From positions 706 through 64,705 of the forward strand of contig JAQVJR010000002.1 in NCBI GenBank assembly GCA_028695015.1: a DNA stretch of 64,000 nt, written 5' to 3'. This document shows, in pieces, positions 1-44,598 of this stretch. The notes beneath the pieces are model-generated. The model was not told the origin of the DNA, did not search any database, and worked only from the letters and a program-made list of their open reading frames with translations. Source of the DNA: Minisyncoccota bacterium (GTDB lineage: Bacteria; Patescibacteriota; Minisyncoccia; UBA6257). Within the stretch, counting starts at the first letter, position 1. Each line of letters begins with the position of its first letter. The position numbers and the translations under genes were made by a program.

Positions 1-1
1 A

Positions 2-280
2 ATTTATTCATTAATTAATCCAGAGATTATAAAAACTTCTGCTGAAATGAATATTATGGATGAAGGTTGTTTAAGTGTTCCTGATGTTTTTGGTGAAGTA
101 GAAAGACCAGAGAAAATTGTTATTAAAGCAACTACTCCAGAAGGCAAGAAAATTAAATTCAAAGCCTTTGGTTTATTAGCTAGGGTTTTACAACATGAAA
201 TGGATCATCTAGATGGTATTCTTTTTACAGATAAGGCTAAAACGATTAGGGAAGAATTAAACCAAGCTCCAGCTTTATAA
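2..280 (+). CDS. def: Peptide deformylase, C-terminal part (5' end lies outside the window)
   Basis: EGCLS and HEMDHLDG metal-binding motifs. The frame stays open back to position 2. It sits immediately upstream of fmt, as in the classic def-fmt operon. Confidence 0.85.
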   Translation: MYSLINPEIIKTSAEMNIMDEGCLSVPDVFGEVERPEKIVIKATTPEGKKIKFKAFGLLARVLQHEMDHLDGILFTDKAKTIREELNQAPAL

Positions 281-282
281 TT

Positions 283-1233
283 ATGAATCAATTTGTATTT
301 TTTGGCTCATCAGAATTTTCTAAAATTGTTTTGGATAAATTACTTCAGGCAAAAATGAAGCCAGTTTTAATAGTTACTAACCAACCAAAGCCAAAAGGTA
401 GAAAACAAATCCTTTCCCCTACTCCTGTTCATGTTCTGGCTTTAGAGCATAAGATTCCAGTATTATTGCCTGAAACATTAGATAAAGAATTTATAAATCA
501 AATAAAAGAGATAAAACCAGAATTTATTATACTGACAGCTTATGGAAAGATTATTCCTTCTGAATTATTAGCGATTCCATTAAAAGGGTTTATTAATTTA
601 CATCCATCTCTTTTACCAAAATGGCGAGGGGCAACTCCAATTCAATCTGTTATATTAAACGGAGACATAGAAACTGGAGTTACTTTAATTTTAATGGATG
701 AACAAGTAGATCATGGTCCAATTATTGCCCAATCTGGATTTAAAATTGATAATCTAAGATTGAATTCAGAAGAATTATCAGAAAAATTAGCTGTTATCGG
801 GGCTGAGTTAATTATTCAAACCATGCCTCAATATTTAAAAGGAGAAATTGCTCCTATTATTCAAGATCATTCTCAAGCAACTTTTTGTACAAAAATATTA
901 CCAGCAGATGAAAGAATTAACTGGCAACAAGATAATATTCAAATAGATAGACAAGTTCGTGCTCTTAATCCTGAACCAGGTGCTTATACTAAAGCTATGC
1001 ATTCTCAAAAATATGAGTTAATATTGAAAATAGTAAAAGGTTATTTGGAAAATGATAAATCATTAGAAAAACTACCAATAGGAAAAGTTTTTGATTATCA
1101 AAATAAAATGGCTGTTAAATGTAAAAAAGGTTTTTATGTTATTGAATTAATTAAACCTTCTGGTAAACAAACAATGCCCAGTGATGCTTTTCTCAGAGGT
1201 AATAATTGGATCTTAAATCAAATATTAAAATGA
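283..1233 (+). CDS. fmt: Methionyl-tRNA formyltransferase
   Basis: Fmt signature HPSLLPKWRGATPIQ. Length about 316 aa. Follows def. Ends with a TGA stop. Confidence 0.85.
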   Translation: MNQFVFFGSSEFSKIVLDKLLQAKMKPVLIVTNQPKPKGRKQILSPTPVHVLALEHKIPVLLPETLDKEFINQIKEIKPEFIILTAYGKIIPSELLAIPLKGFINLHPSLLPKWRGATPIQSVILNGDIETGVTLILMDEQVDHGPIIAQSGFKIDNLRLNSEELSEKLAVIGAELIIQTMPQYLKGEIAPIIQDHSQATFCTKILPADERINWQQDNIQIDRQVRALNPEPGAYTKAMHSQKYELILKIVKGYLENDKSLEKLPIGKVFDYQNKMAVKCKKGFYVIELIKPSGKQTMPSDAFLRGNNWILNQILK

Positions 1234-2240
1234 TTGAAACATCAAAAAAATCTTATCTTGTAATAATCTCAGCTATTTTTATAATTCTTATCCTTGCGAT
1301 AACAGTTAACCTAGGTATAAAAAGAAATGGTTCTTTAACTTCTTCGGTAATACAATTTGAACCAGAAATTATTACAGAAAATAATATTAAAAATCATCAA
1401 GAGATAAGTTTTGATATTCCCTTACATATTAATTTAACTAACTTTTATAAATCTTATGGTCAACGGCTTTTAGGTAATGATAAAGTCAGAATTATTAGCC
1501 GAGAACAATGGAAGGCTGATAATCGTTATGCTGATATGAGTTTTATAGAAAAATATTGTGAAGATAATTTTTGTTATTCAGAAGTTTATGATGCAGAAGA
1601 TAGTTTTTCTCAACAAGAATATTGGACAGCAAAAGAATTAGCCTTGAATTATAAACAGAATTTTAAATTAACTGATAGTTTTTTTCTCCAAAGCCAGGAA
1701 AAAGAAAATAAACTAAAATATCATTATCTGCCTGTGGAAGAAATAATTATTCATCATACAGCAGGTAGCTTTACTTTAGAATTTGAAGATTCAAAAAAAG
1801 AAATCCAAAGAATTTATTTAATGCAGGCAGTGCAGAGAAAATGGCAAGATATTGGCTATCATTATCTCATTGATGGTGCTGGTCGTATCTTTGAAGGTAA
1901 TTTAGGAGGTAAATATGCTATTGGTATTCATACATATGGCCATAATAATGCTACTCTTTCTATTGCTTTAATGGGTGATTTTCGTCCAAGGCATAATGAA
2001 TTTAATAATGCAATGCAAACATCTTTAATAAACCTAATACAATATTTAACAGAAGAATATCAATTTGATTTATCAAAACAAGAATTTTCTTTAAGAAAGA
2101 TAGATCTATCTGGTCGGGAAAAAACTGAAAACTTTATTAAAGGCCATCAGGAAGTAGATTTAAAACAAGAGCCAACTGAATGCCCTGGTGTTAATCCTGA
2201 ATATTTAAGAAATCTAATTTATCCTTATTTATTCCAATAA
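1206..2240 (+). CDS. Membrane-anchored N-acetylmuramoyl-L-alanine amidase / PGRP (Amidase_2) domain protein
   Basis: N-terminal TM helix. IIIHHTAG and GYHYLIDGAGRIFEG motifs typical of Amidase_2/PGRP. C-terminal Cys (ECPGVNP). Confidence 0.6.
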   Translation: MDLKSNIKMIETSKKSYLVIISAIFIILILAITVNLGIKRNGSLTSSVIQFEPEIITENNIKNHQEISFDIPLHINLTNFYKSYGQRLLGNDKVRIISREQWKADNRYADMSFIEKYCEDNFCYSEVYDAEDSFSQQEYWTAKELALNYKQNFKLTDSFFLQSQEKENKLKYHYLPVEEIIIHHTAGSFTLEFEDSKKEIQRIYLMQAVQRKWQDIGYHYLIDGAGRIFEGNLGGKYAIGIHTYGHNNATLSIALMGDFRPRHNEFNNAMQTSLINLIQYLTEEYQFDLSKQEFSLRKIDLSGREKTENFIKGHQEVDLKQEPTECPGVNPEYLRNLIYPYLFQ

Positions 2241-2250
2241 GAATATTCAG

Positions 2251-2826
2251 TTATTCTTTAAATACATTTACTTGATATTGATAAATCTCAAAATCAATAT
2301 TTTTCCAGCAACCTTCTTTCATTCCAGCTTTAGAACATAAATGTGAAAGAAATTCTTCAGGGGTTTTTAAATCTTCCCAAACTTGAGGCAAAAAGGTAGC
2401 TTGATGAGCTCCTTTTTTAATTAAGATCCCTGGTTTGTTTTTGTTTAAATGTTTAATTAAATCTTCAGTTTTTGAAAAATCTATCTTTTCTAAAGGTTCA
2501 ATAATAGAAATTTCTATCTTAATATCACTTAGTTCTTCTTTTTTAACAGGTAAAAAACGGGTATCAAATAAAGCACTAGCTAAACTGTTCTCAATTACCA
2601 TTTCAAAAATTGGCTTAATACCTTCAAGGCAACCAATGCAACCTCTTAAATCTTCATTTTTCCAAAGAGAGATAAAAACTCCTTTTTTCTCTTTTAAAGA
2701 ATCTGATAAATCATCTGTTTCTATTTGCAAAATATCCTTGTTTTTAAAATATTTCTCAAGGGTTCTTCGTGATAATTCTAAGAGATATTTTTTATCCTTT
2801 TGTTTCATAAAAGCCAATACTAGCAT
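2251..2826 (-). CDS. AMMECR1 family protein (AmmeMemoRadiSam system protein A)
   Basis: Conserved LRGCIGC motif of the AMMECR1 domain. Adjacent to Memo-like and radical SAM genes. Confidence 0.7.
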   Translation of the reverse strand: MLVLAFMKQKDKKYLLELSRRTLEKYFKNKDILQIETDDLSDSLKEKKGVFISLWKNEDLRGCIGCLEGIKPIFEMVIENSLASALFDTRFLPVKKEELSDIKIEISIIEPLEKIDFSKTEDLIKHLNKNKPGILIKKGAHQATFLPQVWEDLKTPEEFLSHLCSKAGMKEGCWKNIDFEIYQYQVNVFKE

Positions 2827-3601
2827 AACCTACAACCTGGCTTTCTTTATCTGAAAGCCCTTTAACTGTTTCATCTGAATTCATAGCACATAGTAGTTTT
2901 GGTTGCCAGTTTTTTTTAATAGCAATGTTTAATAAAATTTCAATGGGTTTTTTCCCACAAGCATTTCCAAATTCATTAAAACGATCTAAATCATTAGCTA
3001 AAATAGCATCTATCGTAACTTTATCTACCATCTTAGCTTGAGAATAAGGTAAATAATGGCTTAAATCTGAACTGATAATAAGTAGAGTTTTTTCATTAAT
3101 AATAGGCATTAATATCTCAGTTGCCTTTTTAATATCAATATCGCTAATTAATAAAGGAAAAATCTCAAAATCTTTTAAAACCACTTGCAAGAAAGGTAAT
3201 AAAACTTCTAAGCAATGTTCTGGGTGATGAATTTCTGCAGATTCAATAATTTCTTTTTTATTTTTTAATTCTGGAAAATCATTTTTAGATAAAACTTTTG
3301 TTTTGCCTAATGGTGTTTCCCAATAATCTTCTGTGGTGGCTACTAATTCTTCAAAAGCAAAATGATGACTTGGACCTAACAAGATGACTTTATTAAAAGA
3401 ATCGGGTTCTAGTATTTTTAATCCATAAGCAGCTACTGGTCCAGAATAGATATAACCAGCATGAGGTAAAATCAAAGCCCTTATTTGTTCTTTTTGTTTA
3501 CTAATAGTAGCTTTATTTAAAAATTCCTCAATCATTTGCTTGAGTTGTTCAGGATCATTTGGGTAAAATGTTCCAGCTACTATTGGTAATCGTGTTGACA
3601 T
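2792..3601 (-). CDS. MEMO1-family protein (AmmeMemoRadiSam system protein B)
   Basis: Memo-family N-terminus (TFYPNDPEQL...LILPHAGYIYSGPVAAY). Gene order matches the three-gene AmmeMemoRadiSam cluster. Confidence 0.7.
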   Translation of the reverse strand: MSTRLPIVAGTFYPNDPEQLKQMIEEFLNKATISKQKEQIRALILPHAGYIYSGPVAAYGLKILEPDSFNKVILLGPSHHFAFEELVATTEDYWETPLGKTKVLSKNDFPELKNKKEIIESAEIHHPEHCLEVLLPFLQVVLKDFEIFPLLISDIDIKKATEILMPIINEKTLLIISSDLSHYLPYSQAKMVDKVTIDAILANDLDRFNEFGNACGKKPIEILLNIAIKKNWQPKLLCAMNSDETVKGLSDKESQVVGYASIGFYETKG

Positions 3602-3611
3602 GTTATTGATT

Positions 3612-4640
3612 TTAAAAAATTCCTTTTATTTCTGTATTACATTTTGGGCATTTTCCATCTTGTATTTTATTCTCTATCATATCTAAACCCAACCTTTTAA
3701 TTAAAAGAAAATTACATTTAGGGCAATAAGTGCTTTCATATTCTGCATCTGGGGTATTGCCAATATAGACATATTTTAATCCTGCTTGTTTACCAATTTG
3801 ATAAGCTTTAATTAAGGATTCTTTTGGTGTTGAAGATATATCAACCATTTTATATCCTGGATAAAAAGCAGAAATATGCCAAGGAATATTTTCTGAAATA
3901 TTTTTTAAAAACTTAGCTATTTGTTGTAATTCTTTATCAGAATCATTAATTTTAGGAATAATTAATGTGGTTACTTCTAACCAAATACCCTTTTCATGGA
4001 TTTTTTTAATATTTTCTTTTACTGGTTCTAATCGAGCTTTACAGATATTTTTATAAAAGTCTTCAGAAAAACTTTTTAAATCTATATTAATTGCATCTAA
4101 ATAAGGACTGATTAGATTTAATGTTTCTTGACTCATAAAACCATTAGAAACCCAAATATTTTTAATCCCCTTTTCTTTAGCTAATTTCATTGTTTCATAA
4201 GCATACTCTGTCCAAATAGTTGGTTCATTATAAGTATAGGCAATCATTGGAATTTTACTTTCCAAACAATGTTGGACTATAGTTTCTGGCATCCAAGTTT
4301 CTTGTTGTCTTTCATATCCTGTTTGCCTAATAGCATCAATAGTTTTTGGTAATTGAGAAATTTCCCAATTTTGACAAAATTCACAACCAAAATTACAACC
4401 AATAGTGCCTAAAGAAAATATTTTCTCTCCAGGTAGAAAGTGGAAAAGAGGTTTTTTCTCTACAGGCTCTATATTAACGCTAATTGGCTTGTTATGAACT
4501 AATAGATATAGATCCCCTTGTTTGTTCTGTCTGACCCCACAAATGCCTGTTTGCTCTTCATTAACAATGCATTTATGTGAACAAGCAAGGCATTGGACCT
4601 TATTATCTGTTAGTTTTTTATAAAGAATGGCTTTTTTCAT
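3612..4640 (-). CDS. AmmeMemoRadiSam system radical SAM enzyme (PflA-like activase family)
   Basis: CNFGCEFCQN CxxxCxxC radical SAM motif plus an N-terminal extra Cys cluster (CLACSHKC...CGVRQN). Confidence 0.75.
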   Translation of the reverse strand: MKKAILYKKLTDNKVQCLACSHKCIVNEEQTGICGVRQNKQGDLYLLVHNKPISVNIEPVEKKPLFHFLPGEKIFSLGTIGCNFGCEFCQNWEISQLPKTIDAIRQTGYERQQETWMPETIVQHCLESKIPMIAYTYNEPTIWTEYAYETMKLAKEKGIKNIWVSNGFMSQETLNLISPYLDAINIDLKSFSEDFYKNICKARLEPVKENIKKIHEKGIWLEVTTLIIPKINDSDKELQQIAKFLKNISENIPWHISAFYPGYKMVDISSTPKESLIKAYQIGKQAGLKYVYIGNTPDAEYESTYCPKCNFLLIKRLGLDMIENKIQDGKCPKCNTEIKGIF

Positions 4641-10744: not shown

Positions 10745-10856
10745 CTTATTATCCTTCCCTAAATTAGGGCTGGATTTAGCACCTTCTTTAAGAAGTCATC
10801 TTAAAGGGTTGCTGCCGGATCTCAGGACCAGTTTCCTCCCCGGACTCTTGATAACT
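10745..10856 (-). ncRNA. SAM-I (S-box) riboswitch aptamer
   Basis: Minus-strand RNA reads ...UUAUCAAGAGUCCGGGGAGGAAACUGGUCCUGAGAUCCGGCAGCAACC...AGGUGCUAAAUCCAGC...GGAAGGAUAAUAAGG. This matches the SAM-I consensus blocks (AUCAAGAG, GGAGGGACUGGCCC, GCAACC, GGUGCUAAAUCCAGC, GAUAAGA). GC-rich island upstream of metK. Confidence 0.8.
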
Positions 10857-10902
10857 AACAATATTCAATTATTTTGTATTATATCATGAGAAAAGAGTGA
10901 TT

Positions 10903-24385: not shown

Positions 24386-24420
24386 AAAAGGAGGTATGCC
24401 CTCCTTTTGTTTTTTATTTT
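24384..24420. terminator. Bidirectional terminator
   Basis: AAGGAGG-TATG-CCTCCTT hairpin with an A-run upstream and a T-run downstream. Confidence 0.55.
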
Positions 24421-24607
24421 ACCACCGAAATGATGCTATATATAGATTGTAGATAAATAATGCTACAGCGGTAAAAATAAAAAAAATAAAAAATTTCCAG
24501 CTTGTTTCCTCCTCTTTAGTTAATATGACTAAAAATGTTATTACCCCAAGGGCAATAAATAAAAAGAAAAAAAGAATTTGTTGAGGCAATAAAGTCAAAA
24601 TAAACAT
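24419..24607 (-). CDS. Micro-protein, single TM (62 aa)
   Basis: Strong RBS AGGAGGAAAAAATG. Hydrophobic core. Confidence 0.35.
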   Translation of the reverse strand: MFILTLLPQQILFFFLFIALGVITFLVILTKEEETSWKFFIFFIFTAVALFIYNLYIASFRW

Positions 24608-24734
24608 TTTTTCCTCCTTTTCAATTTTTCATTATCTTGCTTACCATCTCCTTCCTTTACTTTTAAATAGGCTTAAAAAAAGATATTTTAGAATATCGAG
24701 TATTTTATTTAGATTCATTATTAATCTCTCCTTT

Positions 24735-24908
24735 CTAATGAATTAATAATGTATAAGAAAGCAAAATTAATAATATTATACTAGCTAATAGTATGGTTAG
24801 AATAATTTTATCTCCAGTTCTGCTTTCTTTTTCGTTAATCATTTGCTGAATAGTTTTCTGAGTTAATTTCCTTTTTTCAAGAAAATACACTTTTGTGTTT
24901 AATAACAT
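24735..24908 (-). CDS. Micro-protein, single TM (57 aa), not in the supplied ORF track
   Basis: RBS GAGGGAGGTG 8 nt before ATG. Sequence MLLNTKVYFLEKRKLTQKTIQQMINEKESRTGDKIILTILLASIILLILLSYTLLIH. Confidence 0.3.
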   Translation of the reverse strand: MLLNTKVYFLEKRKLTQKTIQQMINEKESRTGDKIILTILLASIILLILLSYTLLIH

Positions 24909-24945
24909 TACTTTTCACCTCCCTCATACTTTCTTCTATTTATCT

Positions 24946-25173
24946 TTAATTTTTTTTCTTTGTGTTTCTTATATGCAATAATCCAATACTTATTGCTGAA
25001 AGTAAATAAAAAAACATAAAAAATAAATTTGGAGCAAAAAATGAGAAAATTATTAATATGGCCACAATACCTACAGCTAGAACATCACCAATTCTTCTTT
25101 TTTCCAACTCAATGAATGGGCTTTGGGCGATTCTTTTTTGTTTGTCTTTTTTTCCGAAAACGTGAAAATTCAT
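24946..25173 (-). CDS. Micro-protein, two TM (75 aa)
   Basis: RBS AGGAGGTAGAAGAAACAATG. Hydrophobic. Overlaps the 3' end of the 145-aa ORF. Confidence 0.35.
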   Translation of the reverse strand: MNFHVFGKKDKQKRIAQSPFIELEKRRIGDVLAVGIVAILIIFSFFAPNLFFMFFYLLSAISIGLLHIRNTKKKN

Positions 25174-25546
25174 TGTTTCTTCTACCTCCTTTCTGTTTAA
25201 TTAAAATCATTTCATTTAAAACTTTTTCTTTAATCTGAATCTTCAGATCTCTCTTTACTTCTTTATAAATTTTAGGGATTGTATTATTGCTAATATATAC
25301 TAATTTACATTCTTCAAATAATCTTACCACTCTTTGATTACTTACTCGGATAACTTCTAGATATCCTGCCATGCCTGGGCCATTTTTATGACCTAATTCT
25401 CCTTTACCTCTTCTGATGTATAGATAGTGTTCGAGATTGTGAGCTGATATTTCATTATTTCTAACTCCATGTAATAAAAGCAAATTAATTTTTTTCTTTT
25501 TACCATTCAAGCATCCATTAAATCTAACCAGAAAATGACGTTTCAT
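25109..25546 (-). CDS. Hypothetical basic protein (145 aa), no recognised domain
   Basis: ORF with a GAAAGGGG RBS. Own TTGACA-N17-TATTAT promoter at about 25585-25612. Very Lys/Arg-rich C-terminus. Confidence 0.4.
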   Translation of the reverse strand: MKRHFLVRFNGCLNGKKKKINLLLLHGVRNNEISAHNLEHYLYIRRGKGELGHKNGPGMAGYLEVIRVSNQRVVRLFEECKLVYISNNTIPKIYKEVKRDLKIQIKEKVLNEMILIKQKGGRRNNEFSRFRKKRQTKKNRPKPIH

Positions 25547-25621
25547 CTTTTACCCCTTTCATTTTATATTTTCAAAGTACATTTATCGTATAATAACATT
25601 GAATAAATAGATTGTCAAATC

Positions 25622-25651
25622 AAAAAATGGCCTTTTTATTAGCCATTTTTT
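25622..25651. terminator. Bidirectional terminator
   Basis: AAAAAATGGC...GCCATTTTTT hairpin after the 82-aa gene. Confidence 0.5.
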
Positions 25652-25664
25652 GTTTATCTAAGCT

Positions 25665-25913
25665 CTAATTTTCCAAATCATCTTCTTGTATTTCATAGAA
25701 TTTACCAATATCATCAACTACATCAACTCTTTCTATCTGACCTTCTATATTTACCTTGATATAGCCTTCTTCATCTGGCTCAATGCCTTTTTCTTCTAAC
25801 CATTGTTCAACTATTTCTTTTTCACCACCACCAAAAATTTCTAGAAATTCTTCATTAGTTATCAAAGGCATTTGTGTTTGTTTTTCTGGAACAGGAATAG
25901 TTTCTAAAGCCAT
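25665..25913 (-). CDS. Hypothetical acidic protein (82 aa)
   Basis: ORF rich in Glu/Asp. Sits between the tandem promoter-hairpin units and a terminator. Confidence 0.4.
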   Translation of the reverse strand: MALETIPVPEKQTQMPLITNEEFLEIFGGGEKEIVEQWLEEKGIEPDEEGYIKVNIEGQIERVDVVDDIGKFYEIQEDDLEN

Positions 25914-25949
25914 GTTTTTTATTAAAAATAATTTTAAAGCCGACCTTTT

Positions 25950-26031
25950 TATAAAAAATGCTGCTATCTATTGAAGCAAGCTTCTCTAAATAGCAGCATT
26001 CTAAGTATAGCAAATGAAAAATATTTGTCAA
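25950..26031 (-). ncRNA. Promoter-hairpin-U-tract unit A (candidate about 50-nt sRNA or attenuator)
   Basis: Minus strand: TTGACA-N16-TATACT, then AUGCUGCUAU...AUAGCAGCAU stem with apical GAAGC-UU-GCUUC sub-stem, then U6. Confidence 0.35.
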
Positions 26032-26063
26032 GAGATATAAAAGTTTATAAAGAAATAGGCTTA

Positions 26064-26147
26064 GAATAAAAAAATGCTGCCGCTTCTGGCAAGCCAAAAA
26101 CGACAGCATTATTAGTATAGCAAATCCAAAAACCTTGTCAAGTCAAT
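26064..26147 (-). ncRNA. Promoter-hairpin-U-tract unit B (paralogous copy of unit A)
   Basis: Minus strand: TTGACTTGACA-N16-TATACT with the same ATTTGCTATACT as unit A, then AUGCUGUCG...CGGCAGCAU stem with apical UGGC-UU-GCCA, then U7. Stem changes are compensatory relative to unit A. Confidence 0.35.
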
Positions 26148-26165
26148 TGTGGATAACTTAAAAGA

Positions 26166-26444
26166 TCAATGTTTAATGATTTTTATAGCTTTTCCATTAA
26201 CAAGAGCATCTGCTATTTTTTTATAAGCTGAATAAAGTATTCTCTGATAAGTACTAGTTGAGGTATGCATTTTTTCAGCAGCTTTTCTTTGTTCCAAATC
26301 ATTTAAATGCCGTAAACGATAAGCCTCTAGTTCTTCTATAGTTAATTCTGTAATTTCCAAAAATCTCATTGGTACCCCTTGAGGTTTAAAATAAGTAACA
26401 TCTGGATCAAAATTCACTTTGCGATAAAGTCTTGGTCTAGCCAT
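26166..26444 (-). CDS. DUF134 (UPF0251) putative DNA-binding protein
   Basis: KPQGVP motif and an HTH-like C-terminus (EKMHTSTSTYQRILYSAYKKIADALVNG) characteristic of DUF134. Confidence 0.65.
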   Translation of the reverse strand: MARPRLYRKVNFDPDVTYFKPQGVPMRFLEITELTIEELEAYRLRHLNDLEQRKAAEKMHTSTSTYQRILYSAYKKIADALVNGKAIKIIKH

Positions 26445-26528
26445 AAATACTAATTTAGTAACAGAATAAAGAAACTGGCCCCTTGATATATATTAATTAA
26501 TATACACGAAGAGGCCAATAATCTTTTA

Positions 26529-26798
26529 TTATTTCTGACCCTTGAGTTCGGTTAATCGTTGTTTGATATCTTTCAATTCTTCTTCAAGATCTTCAGCCTC
26601 TTCTTCGAGTATTTCCATTTCTTCTTCCTTAGTTATCCTCGTTGGATAATAAGGAGCATAATCCCAACCACGACCAAAACCTCTACCATATCCTCTACCA
26701 TATCCTCTTCCCCAGCCACGACCAGCGCCACAAGGCCCTAAGCCCCAACCAGTTCCAGGACCCATTCCCCAAGGACCAGTTCCATCAAATCTTGGCAT
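26529..26798 (-). CDS. DUF5320-like Gly/Arg/Tyr-repeat protein (start placed at the internal Met MPRFDG)
   Basis: MPRFDGTGPWGMGPGTGWGLGPCGAGRGWGRGYGRGYGRGFGRGW followed by an acidic coiled coil. DUF5320 genes commonly accompany DUF134 genes. Confidence 0.5.
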   Translation of the reverse strand: MPRFDGTGPWGMGPGTGWGLGPCGAGRGWGRGYGRGYGRGFGRGWDYAPYYPTRITKEEEMEILEEEAEDLEEELKDIKQRLTELKGQK

Positions 26799-26889
26799 AT
26801 TTTTATTTATTGTTAATATTTTAAGATTTGAGATAGCCGACTTACTATCTGTTATGAGTATATACCCATAATTAGAAAAAGTCAAGTCT

Positions 26890-27480
26890 TTAAATTTCCC
26901 TTAATTCCCCTGTTCTGATATCCTTATTTTTATTTTTTTCTTCTAATAATTCTTCTTGAGTTTTATCTTTTAAATAACCTTCTAGAAGCCATAAAGGATC
27001 TCCATGAGAAACAATTAGAATATTCTTATTTTCATATTTATTTTCTATTTCATTAAGAACAGCAACCATTCTTTCTTGGCATTGATTCCAGCTTTCGCCT
27101 TTAGGCACTCCTATTTTAAACTTTTTCATTTTATCATTATCATAATAAGCCCAAGCTTCTTTTTTATTCTTGCCACCAAAAATTCCCCAATTAATATCTC
27201 TTAATCTTTTATCATAAACAACCTTTTCTAAATCATAGCCTATTATTTTAGCTACAATTTCTACTGTTAATTTAACCCTTAAGATATCAGAGGCAAATAT
27301 ACAATCAATGTTTTTTTCTTTTAATTTCTCACTTACTAATTTAATTTGTTCTATACCTTCTTCTAGTAAATCACAAGGAGGACTATCATCAGGATATTCA
27401 TAAACAATGTCTTTTTTTTCAGCCTGATGAATGGTTTTACCATGCCTTAATAAGAAATATTTGTTTTTCAAAATTCTCAT
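26890..27480 (-). CDS. Histidine phosphatase (phosphoglycerate mutase-like) family protein
   Basis: LRHGKT catalytic RHG motif and a downstream SHG. Confidence 0.65.
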   Translation of the reverse strand: MRILKNKYFLLRHGKTIHQAEKKDIVYEYPDDSPPCDLLEEGIEQIKLVSEKLKEKNIDCIFASDILRVKLTVEIVAKIIGYDLEKVVYDKRLRDINWGIFGGKNKKEAWAYYDNDKMKKFKIGVPKGESWNQCQERMVAVLNEIENKYENKNILIVSHGDPLWLLEGYLKDKTQEELLEEKNKNKDIRTGELREI

Positions 27481-28479: not shown

Positions 28480-28514
28480 TTTAACCAAAAACAGAGCCTT
28501 TTAAGGCTCTGTTT
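28480..28514 (-). terminator. Terminator downstream of tRNA-Ser
   Basis: AAACAGAGCC...GGCTCTGTTT hairpin followed by a U-run on the minus strand. Confidence 0.5.
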
Positions 28515-28542: not shown

Positions 28543-28629
28543 CGGAGAGGGTGGGATTCGAACCCACGGTGCCCTTACGGACACAGCTGCTTTCCAAGCA
28601 ACCGCACTAAACCACTATGCGACCTCTCC
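28543..28629 (-). tRNA. tRNA-Ser (anticodon GGA)
   Basis: Minus-strand GGAGAGG acceptor. Anticodon stem GTTGC/GCAGC with loop TTGGAAA. Long variable arm. GTGGG-TTCGAAT-CCCAC T-arm. CCA not encoded. Confidence 0.85.
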
Positions 28630-44525: not shown

Positions 44526-44598
44526 TGCCCTCAACCGGATTCGAACCGGTGTTACCAGAATGAGAATCTGGCGTCCTAAGCCACTAGACGATGAGGGC
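44526..44598 (-). tRNA. tRNA-Glu (anticodon CUC)
   Basis: Minus-strand GCCCTCA acceptor. CCAGA-TTCTCAT-TCTGG anticodon arm. GGTTCGAATCC T-loop. 73 nt. Confidence 0.8.

Follow-up and report, generated by a model that had tools for sequence, protein, structure and literature searches.

Small RNA (sRNA) genes are known to occur as sets of sibling copies, such as the tandem PrrF1/PrrF2 of Pseudomonas, LhrC1-5 of Listeria and Qrr1-5 of Vibrio, in which each copy possesses its own promoter and intrinsic terminator. Two tandem units found on the minus strand of a 64,000-nucleotide (nt) stretch of DNA from a Minisyncoccota bacterium (Patescibacteriota; contig JAQVJR010000002.1 of assembly GCA_028695015.1, positions 706 to 64,705), hereafter the window, appear to work most like such sibling genes but, judging from their sequence, fail the defining feature of the class, the seed. 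Each unit consists of a sigma-70-type promoter that leads straight into a hairpin and a U-tract. In common with sibling sRNAs, the units occur in several paralogous copies per genome, some of which form tandems at a distance of about 100 nt, and each carries a promoter of this type and its own hairpin and U-tract end. Unlike sibling sRNAs, which have ~90-150 nt and a single-stranded seed upstream of the terminator, the RNA expected from a unit has ~40 nt and comprises the terminator hairpin only, and the stems vary freely within one genome. In fact, the conserved single-stranded seed by which a base-pairing sRNA is recognized is absent from the predicted unit RNA, which would be fully paired from its +1 to the U tail, the only exceptions being the loop of 4 nt and the 2x2 internal loop of the long form. 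The units belong to an uncatalogued multi-copy family with well over a hundred units in a clade of Paceibacteria-like Patescibacteria, and their structure is under selection in a strand-specific manner, at the level of RNA. The explanation that we favor, with a probability of about 0.58, is that they are autonomous mini-genes for a hairpin RNA of 38-46 nt that also terminate the upstream operon.

An earlier note on this DNA, made from its letters, had described two promoter-hairpin-U-tract units on the minus strand at 25950-26147, and both are present there; all their features are read on that strand. In unit B, a promoter (26114-26141) formed by the -35 TTGACA (26141-26136), a 16-nt spacer with an extended -10 TG, and the -10 TATACT (26119-26114) matches the consensus at 11 of 12 positions, and the hairpin (26108-26075) folds into 16-17 base pairs (bp) with a CUUG loop, followed by a U7 tract (26074-26068). 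This short-form hairpin, GCUGUCGUUUUUGG-CUUG-CCAGAAGCGGCAGC with A and U7 behind it, has a folding energy of -24.9 kcal/mol (z = -6.2; as good in 0 of 200 shuffles) and was detected by the terminator scan as a stem of 17 pairs, 7 of them G-C, with its T-run. The RNA predicted from unit B would have ~38-40 nt (26068-26107), both ends being placed by inference and the +1 on the G at 26107. A poorly conserved 36-nt spacer (26032-26067), which in related strains is an insertion site of gene cassettes, separates it from unit A, whose promoter (26004-26031; TTGACA at 26031-26026, 16-nt spacer with TG, TATACT at 26009-26004) likewise matches 11 of 12 positions. The long-form hairpin of unit A (25998-25959), GCUGCUAUUUA-GA-GAAG-CUUG-CUUC-AA-UAGAUAGCAGC followed by A and a U6 tract (25958-25953), folds into 12 bp, a 2x2 internal loop, 4 bp and the CUUG loop (-24.5 kcal/mol, z = -5.3); it carries an internal loop and was missed by the terminator scan. 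Its predicted RNA, with ~43-45 nt (25953-25997) and a predicted +1 on the G at 25997, would comprise 11 bp from the +1, a GA/AA internal loop, 4 bp and the CUUG loop.

Both units therefore carry, by sequence match, hexamers of the sigma-70 kind (TTGACA/TATAAT, 16-18 bp apart) and, by sequence and fold, the arrangement typical of intrinsic terminators (a G/C stem-loop with at least 5 U within ~2 nt). In each of them the conserved stem begins 6 nt after the -10, not ~7 nt as had been proposed, and since the predicted +1 falls on the first G of GCUG the transcripts are expected to have ~38-45 nt and not 45-50 nt; the architecture itself stands, as does the tandem arrangement, with a start-to-start spacing of 110 nt in place of the ~115 first given. 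The 12-mer shared by both promoters, ATTTGCTATACT, occurs exactly twice in the window, in agreement with the earlier note, and the motif ATGCTG-N15-40-CAGCAT was found 2 times against 0.07 expected. The idea of a DNA-uptake sequence was rejected because the stem-base motif is present only twice in 64 kb. The two stems differ in sequence and keep their pairing (CUA/UAG in unit A versus UCG/CGG in unit B), and folds of the plus strand are far weaker (-12.8 and -19.1 kcal/mol). Among the 89 sites of the window that combine a hairpin with a T-run, the units rank first and second in stability (-23.5 and -21.6 kcal/mol; the median of the sites is -8.0).

Like canonical intrinsic terminators, the units have a stem whose base is G/C-rich, a tetraloop that is stable and a U-tract no more than 1 nt away, and in most cases the unit is the only terminator of the upstream gene. 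They differ from the clear terminators of the window (at 28491, 53283 and 49777; 7-10 bp, -10 to -14 kcal/mol) in their stem of 16-19 bp and ~-22 kcal/mol, and from canonical terminators in general in the fixed G-CUUG-C cap and in the consensus promoter that always stands ahead, with the predicted +1 on the first stem base. One might suppose that these are ordinary terminators preceded by chance by promoter-like, A/T-rich sequence, given that the genome is A/T-rich and that the 13 promoter-like sites of the region do not exceed the 14.7 expected from shuffling. Such a coincidence is effectively refuted: both units score 11 of 12 with the TG and share an identical 12-mer, the arrangement and its spacing recur unchanged in more than 130 distinct units that come from many samples, and the units are more conserved than synonymous sites.

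The family was collected by scanning metagenome contigs with a pattern made of the promoter, YGCUG and GCUUGC only, in which the 3' arm was left unconstrained. The pattern matched at least 119 contigs (designated here, as other loci, by L numbers), and among the matches listed there are 168 units, 132 of them distinct, with several on some contigs (five within 11.5 kb of L109, five on L148, and three each on L124, L158 and L194). All 132 complete distinct matches carry a complementary 3' arm of at least 12 bp and a U-tract of 5-9 residues, most commonly 7 or 8. Their 65 distinct hairpin cores adopt one common fold, in a short form like that of unit B and a long form like that of unit A. In an alignment of the 65 hairpins (A1), 93% of the cells are paired and changes on both sides occur in 8 of 18 pairs, which gives a covariation score of 0.362, compared with 0.241 in shuffled alignments and reached by none of 500 shuffles; when the 3' partners were slid as a control, pairing fell to 36-77%. 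G-U pairs over the same hairpins number 183 in the sense and 14 in the antisense orientation, and in each of the 65 sequences the sense fold is the more stable one, with a mean of -21.1 kcal/mol compared with -12.0 kcal/mol for the antisense fold. The 5 nt that follow the -10 are variable, conservation starts at Y-G, and pairs outside GCUG/CAGC are uncompensated. Copies on one contig resemble each other, yet their stem sequences differ, and a hairpin identical to that of unit B is found in L001, L012, L109, L128, L143, L144, L146, L160 and L164. The compensatory stem differences noticed between units A and B therefore extend to the whole set of hairpins, and the proposal that lack of conservation and covariation in related genomes would speak against a functional structure was put to the test and survived by the element. 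What did not survive is the view of a local duplicated pair: the two units are one short-form and one long-form member of a dispersed family, and of the paired-sRNA proposal the selected, strand-specific RNA structure with its own promoters is what holds.

The way in which the sequences were collected dictates the GCUG, the loop and the promoter together with part of the 3' base, and the invariance of these seeded parts is consequently in part circular. A covariance model (R1) was built from the hairpin and U-tract alone, with the promoter excluded, and gave 183 matches over the collected loci. About 20 of these had been missed by the pattern and keep a near-consensus promoter, with deviations of one base or one position; the copies found by the model alone show compensated changes at the stem base (e.g. 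GCCG/CGGC and GCUAC/GUAGC) and include long forms of 59-63 nt that are still capped by CUUG. Five further relatives detected by R1 have no promoter and a different loop (CAUUAG), and are located right behind stop codons, as plain terminators. The promoter is thus kept together with the CUUG cap and missing where the loop differs, so that the CUUG-capped hairpin goes with the promoter. Promoter-less relatives of the hairpin lie at L158 13684-13730, L184 4969-5015, L156 689-734 and L148 9967-10013; they retain the UGCUGUU...AGCAGCA base and U6, have CAUUAG or GUUUG as loop, and directly follow stop codons. On the minus strand of L210, ~25 nt past a unit that ends at reverse-complement position 103, a second type of promoter-into-hairpin unit was observed (TTGACA-16-TATACT, an unrelated hairpin GUGGCCGCUUGAGUC...GACCAAGUGGCC and U5), which indicates that the design of a promoter leading straight into a terminator may extend beyond the CUUG family.

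In the window, R1 finds unit A with 62.8 bits (E = 2e-10) and unit B with 60.3 bits (E = 7e-10), and even with the filters off no further copy, the next and unrelated match having 14 bits. The claim that no annotated RNA family corresponds to the units was upheld, both for Rfam 15 over the whole window at gathering thresholds, where only a SAM (S-adenosylmethionine) riboswitch and two tRNAs were returned, and for a permissive Rfam scan of 25600-26500, in which the best score was 18 bits against thresholds of 42-229. The riboswitch (75.8 bits) and the two tRNA genes are located at 10746-10857, 28543-28629 and 44526-44598, respectively, all on the minus strand. Full-text literature searches likewise gave no description of such units in the candidate phyla radiation (CPR), Patescibacteria or Parcubacteria.

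Among short dispersed palindromic repeats, the repetitive extragenic palindromes and the mosaic elements that they form (REP/BIME) are able to terminate transcripts, as are the Correia elements of Neisseria, which may in addition carry promoters. The attC sites of integrons, for their part, conserve structure rather than sequence. The units resemble REP/BIME and Correia elements in being short, multi-copy, intergenic and hairpin-forming, and it may be asked whether they act at the level of DNA, as a repeat of the REP, MITE (miniature inverted-repeat transposable element) or attC-like kind whose single-stranded hairpin marks cassette boundaries, with the promoter and the T-run as incidental cargo. 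Their variable number per contig, the resemblance between copies of the same contig, stems that conserve structure over sequence as attC sites do, and the spacer between units B and A, an insertion/deletion hot spot with three states in close relatives, would all fit such an element. Nevertheless, we consider this very unlikely, since the excess of G-U pairing on one strand favors a transcribed molecule, and since the promoter and the T-run are found at fixed spacing in essentially every copy. The strand-specific G-U pairing and the promoter that always leads into the hairpin also set the units apart from REP/BIME and Correia elements, as does the lack of terminal inverted repeats and target duplications: in the relatives compared, neither target duplications at the unit borders nor inverted repeats spanning the unit were found, a comparison that leaves RAYT or other transposases elsewhere in the genomes outside its search. 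No transposase associated with the units was seen, and none of the eight open reading frames (ORFs) around the units of the window (24419 to 27480) that were scanned with Pfam gave an integrase or transposase match, the wider genome not having been searched for IntI. The palindrome ends in (U)GCUG ... CAGC(A), which is different from the attC cores RYYYAAC/GTTRRRY. Moreover, a scan of viral contigs with the pattern gave 0 matches, blastn against phage and plasmid collections gave none, and orthologous units stay in place across species (L103, L154 and L176).

A further described system of these bacteria has repeated hairpin-like units. TIGR arrays, found in CPR bacteria and phages, consist of 5-15 tandem units beside the gene of a Nop-domain Tas protein, are transcribed as one precursor and carry non-complementary dual spacers (PMC12045711). 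The units studied here share with them their occurrence in Patescibacteria and the combination of conserved edges and loop around variable middles. In contrast to TIGR arrays, the units are individually equipped with a promoter and a terminator, their variable segments pair with each other, and only two of them are present at this locus; the same eight ORFs showed no Pfam match to the Nop-domain family.

The comparison with close relatives bears directly on the reading as mini-genes. Between the window and L012, a metagenome-assembled genome of Candidatus Paceibacterota, unit B is 97% and unit A 92% identical, compared with 56% for the spacer between them and 81-89% for the third codon positions of the flanking genes. 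The units are thus more conserved than both the spacer and the third codon positions, which indicates that they are under purifying selection. In accordance with this, all changes in hairpin A relative to L012 and L001 preserve the structure, consisting of a U-A to U-G replacement and one change in the internal loop. The tandem B-A arrangement of the window is also present in L012 and L143, and in these three the hot spot between the units is empty. In L144 (353-1224) a single gene of 252 amino acids (aa) lies between B and A on the opposite strand, and in L001 (2521-4947), L002 and L160 the place is taken by a cassette resembling those for ribosomally synthesized and post-translationally modified peptides, with its own promoter, a 49-aa Cys-rich peptide ending in QCCKPGPCWPKR, a 406-aa radical SAM/SPASM enzyme and a 251-aa gene on the opposite strand. 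L004-L011 have just one unit, whose stem differs in sequence and keeps its pairing. In a 213-nt fold, a pairing of the spacer behind unit B with the start region of the downstream 82-aa gene was noticed; as the spacer is not conserved in L012, this pairing is treated as a chance one.

Gene orientation around the units was counted on our own ORF calls of at least 70 aa, for the units among the matches listed. Behind 116 scorable units the next gene is co-oriented in 91 cases, and in the remaining 25 the unit faces the 3' end of a convergent gene; the upstream gene is co-oriented in 91 cases versus 21. Convergent positions are kept across genomes: a 577-581-aa gene abuts the U-tract in L103, L154 and L176, and is 67 nt away in L146, a 225-aa membrane-protein gene converges on the U-tract in five contigs, and 6 units are flanked by a divergent gene on their upstream side and by a convergent one on their downstream side. 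For 65 of 81 close co-oriented upstream genes there is no other terminator, and the median distance between stop codon and -35 is 24 nt, which suggests that the hairpin also terminates the upstream gene. The window follows this pattern. Unit B starts with its -35 24 nt behind the stop codon of a gene of the DUF134 family, with no other terminator between the two, so that its hairpin is the sole candidate terminator of the operon formed by a DUF5320 gene (26885-26529) and the DUF134 gene.

Promoter-proximal attenuators, such as riboswitch expression platforms, leader-peptide attenuators and the start-site attenuator of the pyrG type, place a terminator between a promoter and its gene, and hairpins at the 5' end of a messenger, as in the ompA and aprE leaders, stabilize it. 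The earlier note had offered as an alternative a conditional terminator that gates read-through into the 82-aa gene. In the general form of this reading, the unit is the promoter of the downstream gene and the hairpin a conditional or leaky terminator or, in a variant, a 5' stabilizer. Unit A is indeed like an attenuator with respect to the 82-aa gene, which begins 39 nt past the unit and has no other promoter, and the same holds in L004-L011, L012, L065, L140 and L166; downstream genes are co-oriented in 78% of cases, and the hairpin starts at the predicted +1, as in known stabilizer hairpins. As a general explanation we nevertheless judge attenuation unlikely. The predicted +1 is the first stem base and the 5 nt preceding it are unconserved, which leaves no room ahead of the hairpin for an antiterminator, an aptamer or a leader peptide, and the units also lack a homopolymer at +1 that would permit reiterative transcription. 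The value of 78% is equivalent to the 81% of co-oriented upstream genes, and thus reflects a general strand bias and no tie to the downstream gene. In addition, most units have no dependent downstream gene: 57 of 85 distinct spacers ahead of co-oriented genes hold a separate promoter that matches 10-12 of 12 positions, about a fifth of the units point at the convergent gene ends mentioned above, and a back-up terminator-like hairpin is found within 75 nt of 25 of 122 units. In L104 and L195, for instance, a second terminator comes after the unit, and behind it a separate TTGACT-17-TATAAT promoter precedes the 23S rRNA. A stabilizer, in turn, would not require an invariant U6-9 tract, and distant homologues of the 82-aa gene have a promoter of their own, which marks the arrangement in the window as derived. 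Attenuation thus fails as a general account, and a weak sense of it is retained for unit A and the 82-aa gene.

The frequent presence of a promoter behind the units raises another alternative. RNA polymerase that has finished a transcript at an intrinsic terminator usually remains bound to the DNA, along which it diffuses, and a polymerase that retains sigma can re-initiate nearby (PMC6978380; PMC11364550). The unit might then be a cis-acting device, in which the hairpin insulates and the promoter captures a polymerase that terminates after ~40 nt, probably still holding sigma, and slides to re-initiate at the promoter of a nearby gene, the RNA being a by-product of this hand-off or booster. 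Consistent with it, besides the single-molecule evidence for diffusion after termination, a 12/12 promoter is often found 13-80 bp downstream, with recurrent spacings of 26-27 nt, the A/T-rich composition of the spacer is that of an UP element, and units cluster in islands of genes for cell-surface and secreted proteins in which each gene has a strong promoter. Such a hand-off seems to us improbable as the reason for these units, as about one fifth of them face convergent genes and have no downstream promoter to feed, as in the window unit B would feed only unit A with no promoter after the latter, and as the conserved CUUG cap and stems far beyond the needs of termination are left without explanation.

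Several features of the downstream regions were observed in the course of this comparison. Unit-rich islands encode cell-surface functions; that of L109 codes for two enzymes, a GT2 glycosyltransferase and a polysaccharide deacetylase, as well as for orphan secreted proteins and one protein that contains a peptidoglycan-binding domain. Downstream genes with the 12/12 promoter TTGACA-17-TATAAT are frequent (L148, L122, L123, L126, L158, L171, L194, L202, L205, and L001 at 2650-2665), and their 5' untranslated regions (UTRs) share (U)GUAGCUUGAAAAUUUAAA about 20 nt before a AAAGGAGG Shine-Dalgarno sequence, a motif that has GCUUG in common with the hairpin cap and shows no enrichment within the window. 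The 5'-UTR motif RYUUGAAAAYU, frequent downstream of units elsewhere, shows no enrichment in the window (1 versus 3 expected). A palindromic hairpin, UUAACGACGUSSGACGUCGUUAA, is present 10-40 nt past units in L146, L123, L126, L148, L155, L200 and L205. In L148 the ~4.3 kb downstream of a unit (1-4350) are devoid of Rfam matches and of ORFs above 72 aa, and the region of L174 that apparently corresponds to it holds an ORF for a 398-aa secreted protein; this part of L148 could be a degraded gene or a sequence-quality problem.

Returning to the mini-gene reading, we propose that each unit is a self-contained transcription unit of ~85 bp. Its near-consensus sigma-70 promoter, with the extended -10, would place the start on the first base of the hairpin, a G that lies 7 nt behind the -10 and has a pyrimidine in position -1. 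The very stable hairpin, with 14-19 bp (~26 bp in long forms) and a G-CUUG-C tetraloop, followed by A and U6-9, would act as a strong intrinsic terminator, and the product would be a 5'-triphosphate RNA of ~38-46 nt made of the hairpin and a U tail only. The same hairpin would terminate the upstream operon, here DUF5320-DUF134, and in the window the 82-aa gene 39 nt behind unit A would be transcribed by leak-through of the terminator. Since the stems drift with compensation and offer no single-stranded seed, a role in trans, if there is one, must rest on shape and not on base pairing, and the RNA might act as a protein ligand, a decoy or a nuclease-resistant species.

Some considerations weigh against this proposal. 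The use of the promoter, the start site and termination are predictions from the DNA, as is the accumulation of the RNA, and an RNA that is nothing but a closed hairpin has no obvious mode of action and no identified partner protein. About 80% of the units sit where a terminator is needed, and the selected role could accordingly be termination alone, with the promoter serving another purpose. The circularity introduced by the seeding pattern is mitigated, not removed, by the matches that only the covariance model found; the taxonomic range of the family is sampled rather than mapped; and the density in the window is low, with 2 copies in 64 kb, both at one locus. More tentatively, we can imagine that the units represent a new class of RNA genes, whose products, expressed from numerous consensus promoters of Paceibacteria-like episymbionts, are ultra-short 5'-triphosphate hairpins, capped by CUUG and ending in a U tail, that act by shape only, as abundant ligands or decoys of a protein, or, more radically, that they are boosters of polymerase hand-off. 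In the former case the RNA would bind a nuclease, a regulator that recognizes terminator hairpins or 5' UTRs, or RNA polymerase, and the bound protein would coordinate the islands of cell-surface and secreted-protein genes in which the units cluster.

Patescibacteria represent a large share of bacterial diversity and have tiny genomes, and to our knowledge almost nothing is known of their non-coding RNAs or of how their transcription is controlled. That a genome below 1 Mb spends scarce nucleotides on many consensus promoters that fire into immediate terminators implies a function. The structure and its selection are solid and the family is large, and expression of the RNA is predicted; if the RNA is real, it is probably among the most abundant transcripts of these cells and would constitute a family that Rfam does not yet hold, for which the covariance model R1 is ready for use. 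By kind the units would be a known thing, a small RNA or a terminator module, and what appears new is the hairpin-only architecture and the multi-copy distribution in CPR bacteria. A testable prediction is the existence of discrete RNAs of 38-46 nt with defined ends, and the units may also be of use as naturally occurring promoter and terminator parts that are compact and very strong.

The genes that flank the units are those named in the earlier note. Upstream lies the DUF134 gene (26166-26444, minus strand; Pfam PF02001, E = 8e-20). A functional link between the two, in which the DUF134 protein binds or regulates the hairpin, was dropped: of 80 DUF134 loci in Patescibacteria only L012 and L065 contain units, and only in L012 does a unit directly follow the gene, which leaves the link without comparative support. 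The 92-aa DUF134 protein shows a weak match to sigma-70 region 4, and is 68-93% identical across very diverse Patescibacteria (loci L012-L091), an unusually strong conservation for a small protein.

Downstream, on the same strand, lies the gene of an acidic orphan protein of 82 aa (25665-25913, ATG at 25913), which begins 39 nt past the U6 tract. Its 39-nt leader (25914-25952) has neither a promoter nor a Shine-Dalgarno sequence and includes a conserved GGUCGGC at 25945-25939, and a search for a hidden promoter inside and after the unit A hairpin gave no acceptable -10 or -35. Having no promoter of its own, the gene must be fed by read-through of unit A (and unit B), and leak-through of these units would be the only visible source of its transcription in the lineage of the window. 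A profile search with the protein retrieved 41 sequence clusters, all from 'Pacebacteria' or metagenomes and all unannotated; no Pfam or NCBIfam match was found, and a profile search of PDB sequences returned only E values of 0.08 or higher. The gene has a conserved synteny with MurD, a TrxB-like gene, QueA and TGT. Homologues of the protein are few, and the one in L004-L011 is 62% identical. In the distant L213 and L215 the 82-aa homologue has its own promoter, and the long-form unit present there is found ~0.7 kb upstream, ahead of a 183-aa gene; in L211, where there is no unit, the homologue is preceded by TTGACC-17-TATGAT; the distant homologues in general display a TTGAC(C/T)-17-TATGAT promoter and then GGUCGAU. 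It follows from these homologues that the disposition of unit A ahead of the 82-aa gene is a derived one and only a local form of attenuation. In the lineage of the window the gene has lost this promoter, with the U-tract of unit A now standing in its place.

The start of this gene also calls for caution in annotation, because ORF callers extend it into the hairpin. In L001 (5009-5314) the public call, P0001, has 101 aa and begins at an ATG inside the 3' arm of hairpin A, and the conserved start of the 82-aa homologues is an ATG located further downstream (MALETIP...). The conserved motif GGUCGRY lies about 25-35 nt ahead of the AUG in the window (25939-25945), L004 (3375-3381), L098, L106, L211 (9960-9966) and L215 (9958-9964). 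Likewise, AAAGGUCGAWAU precedes other genes devoid of a Shine-Dalgarno sequence, e.g. the 'MNSKNIWIIIAVI...' family in L119, L148, L156, L158 and L188, and GGUCGRY may be an unrecognized translation-initiation or leader element.

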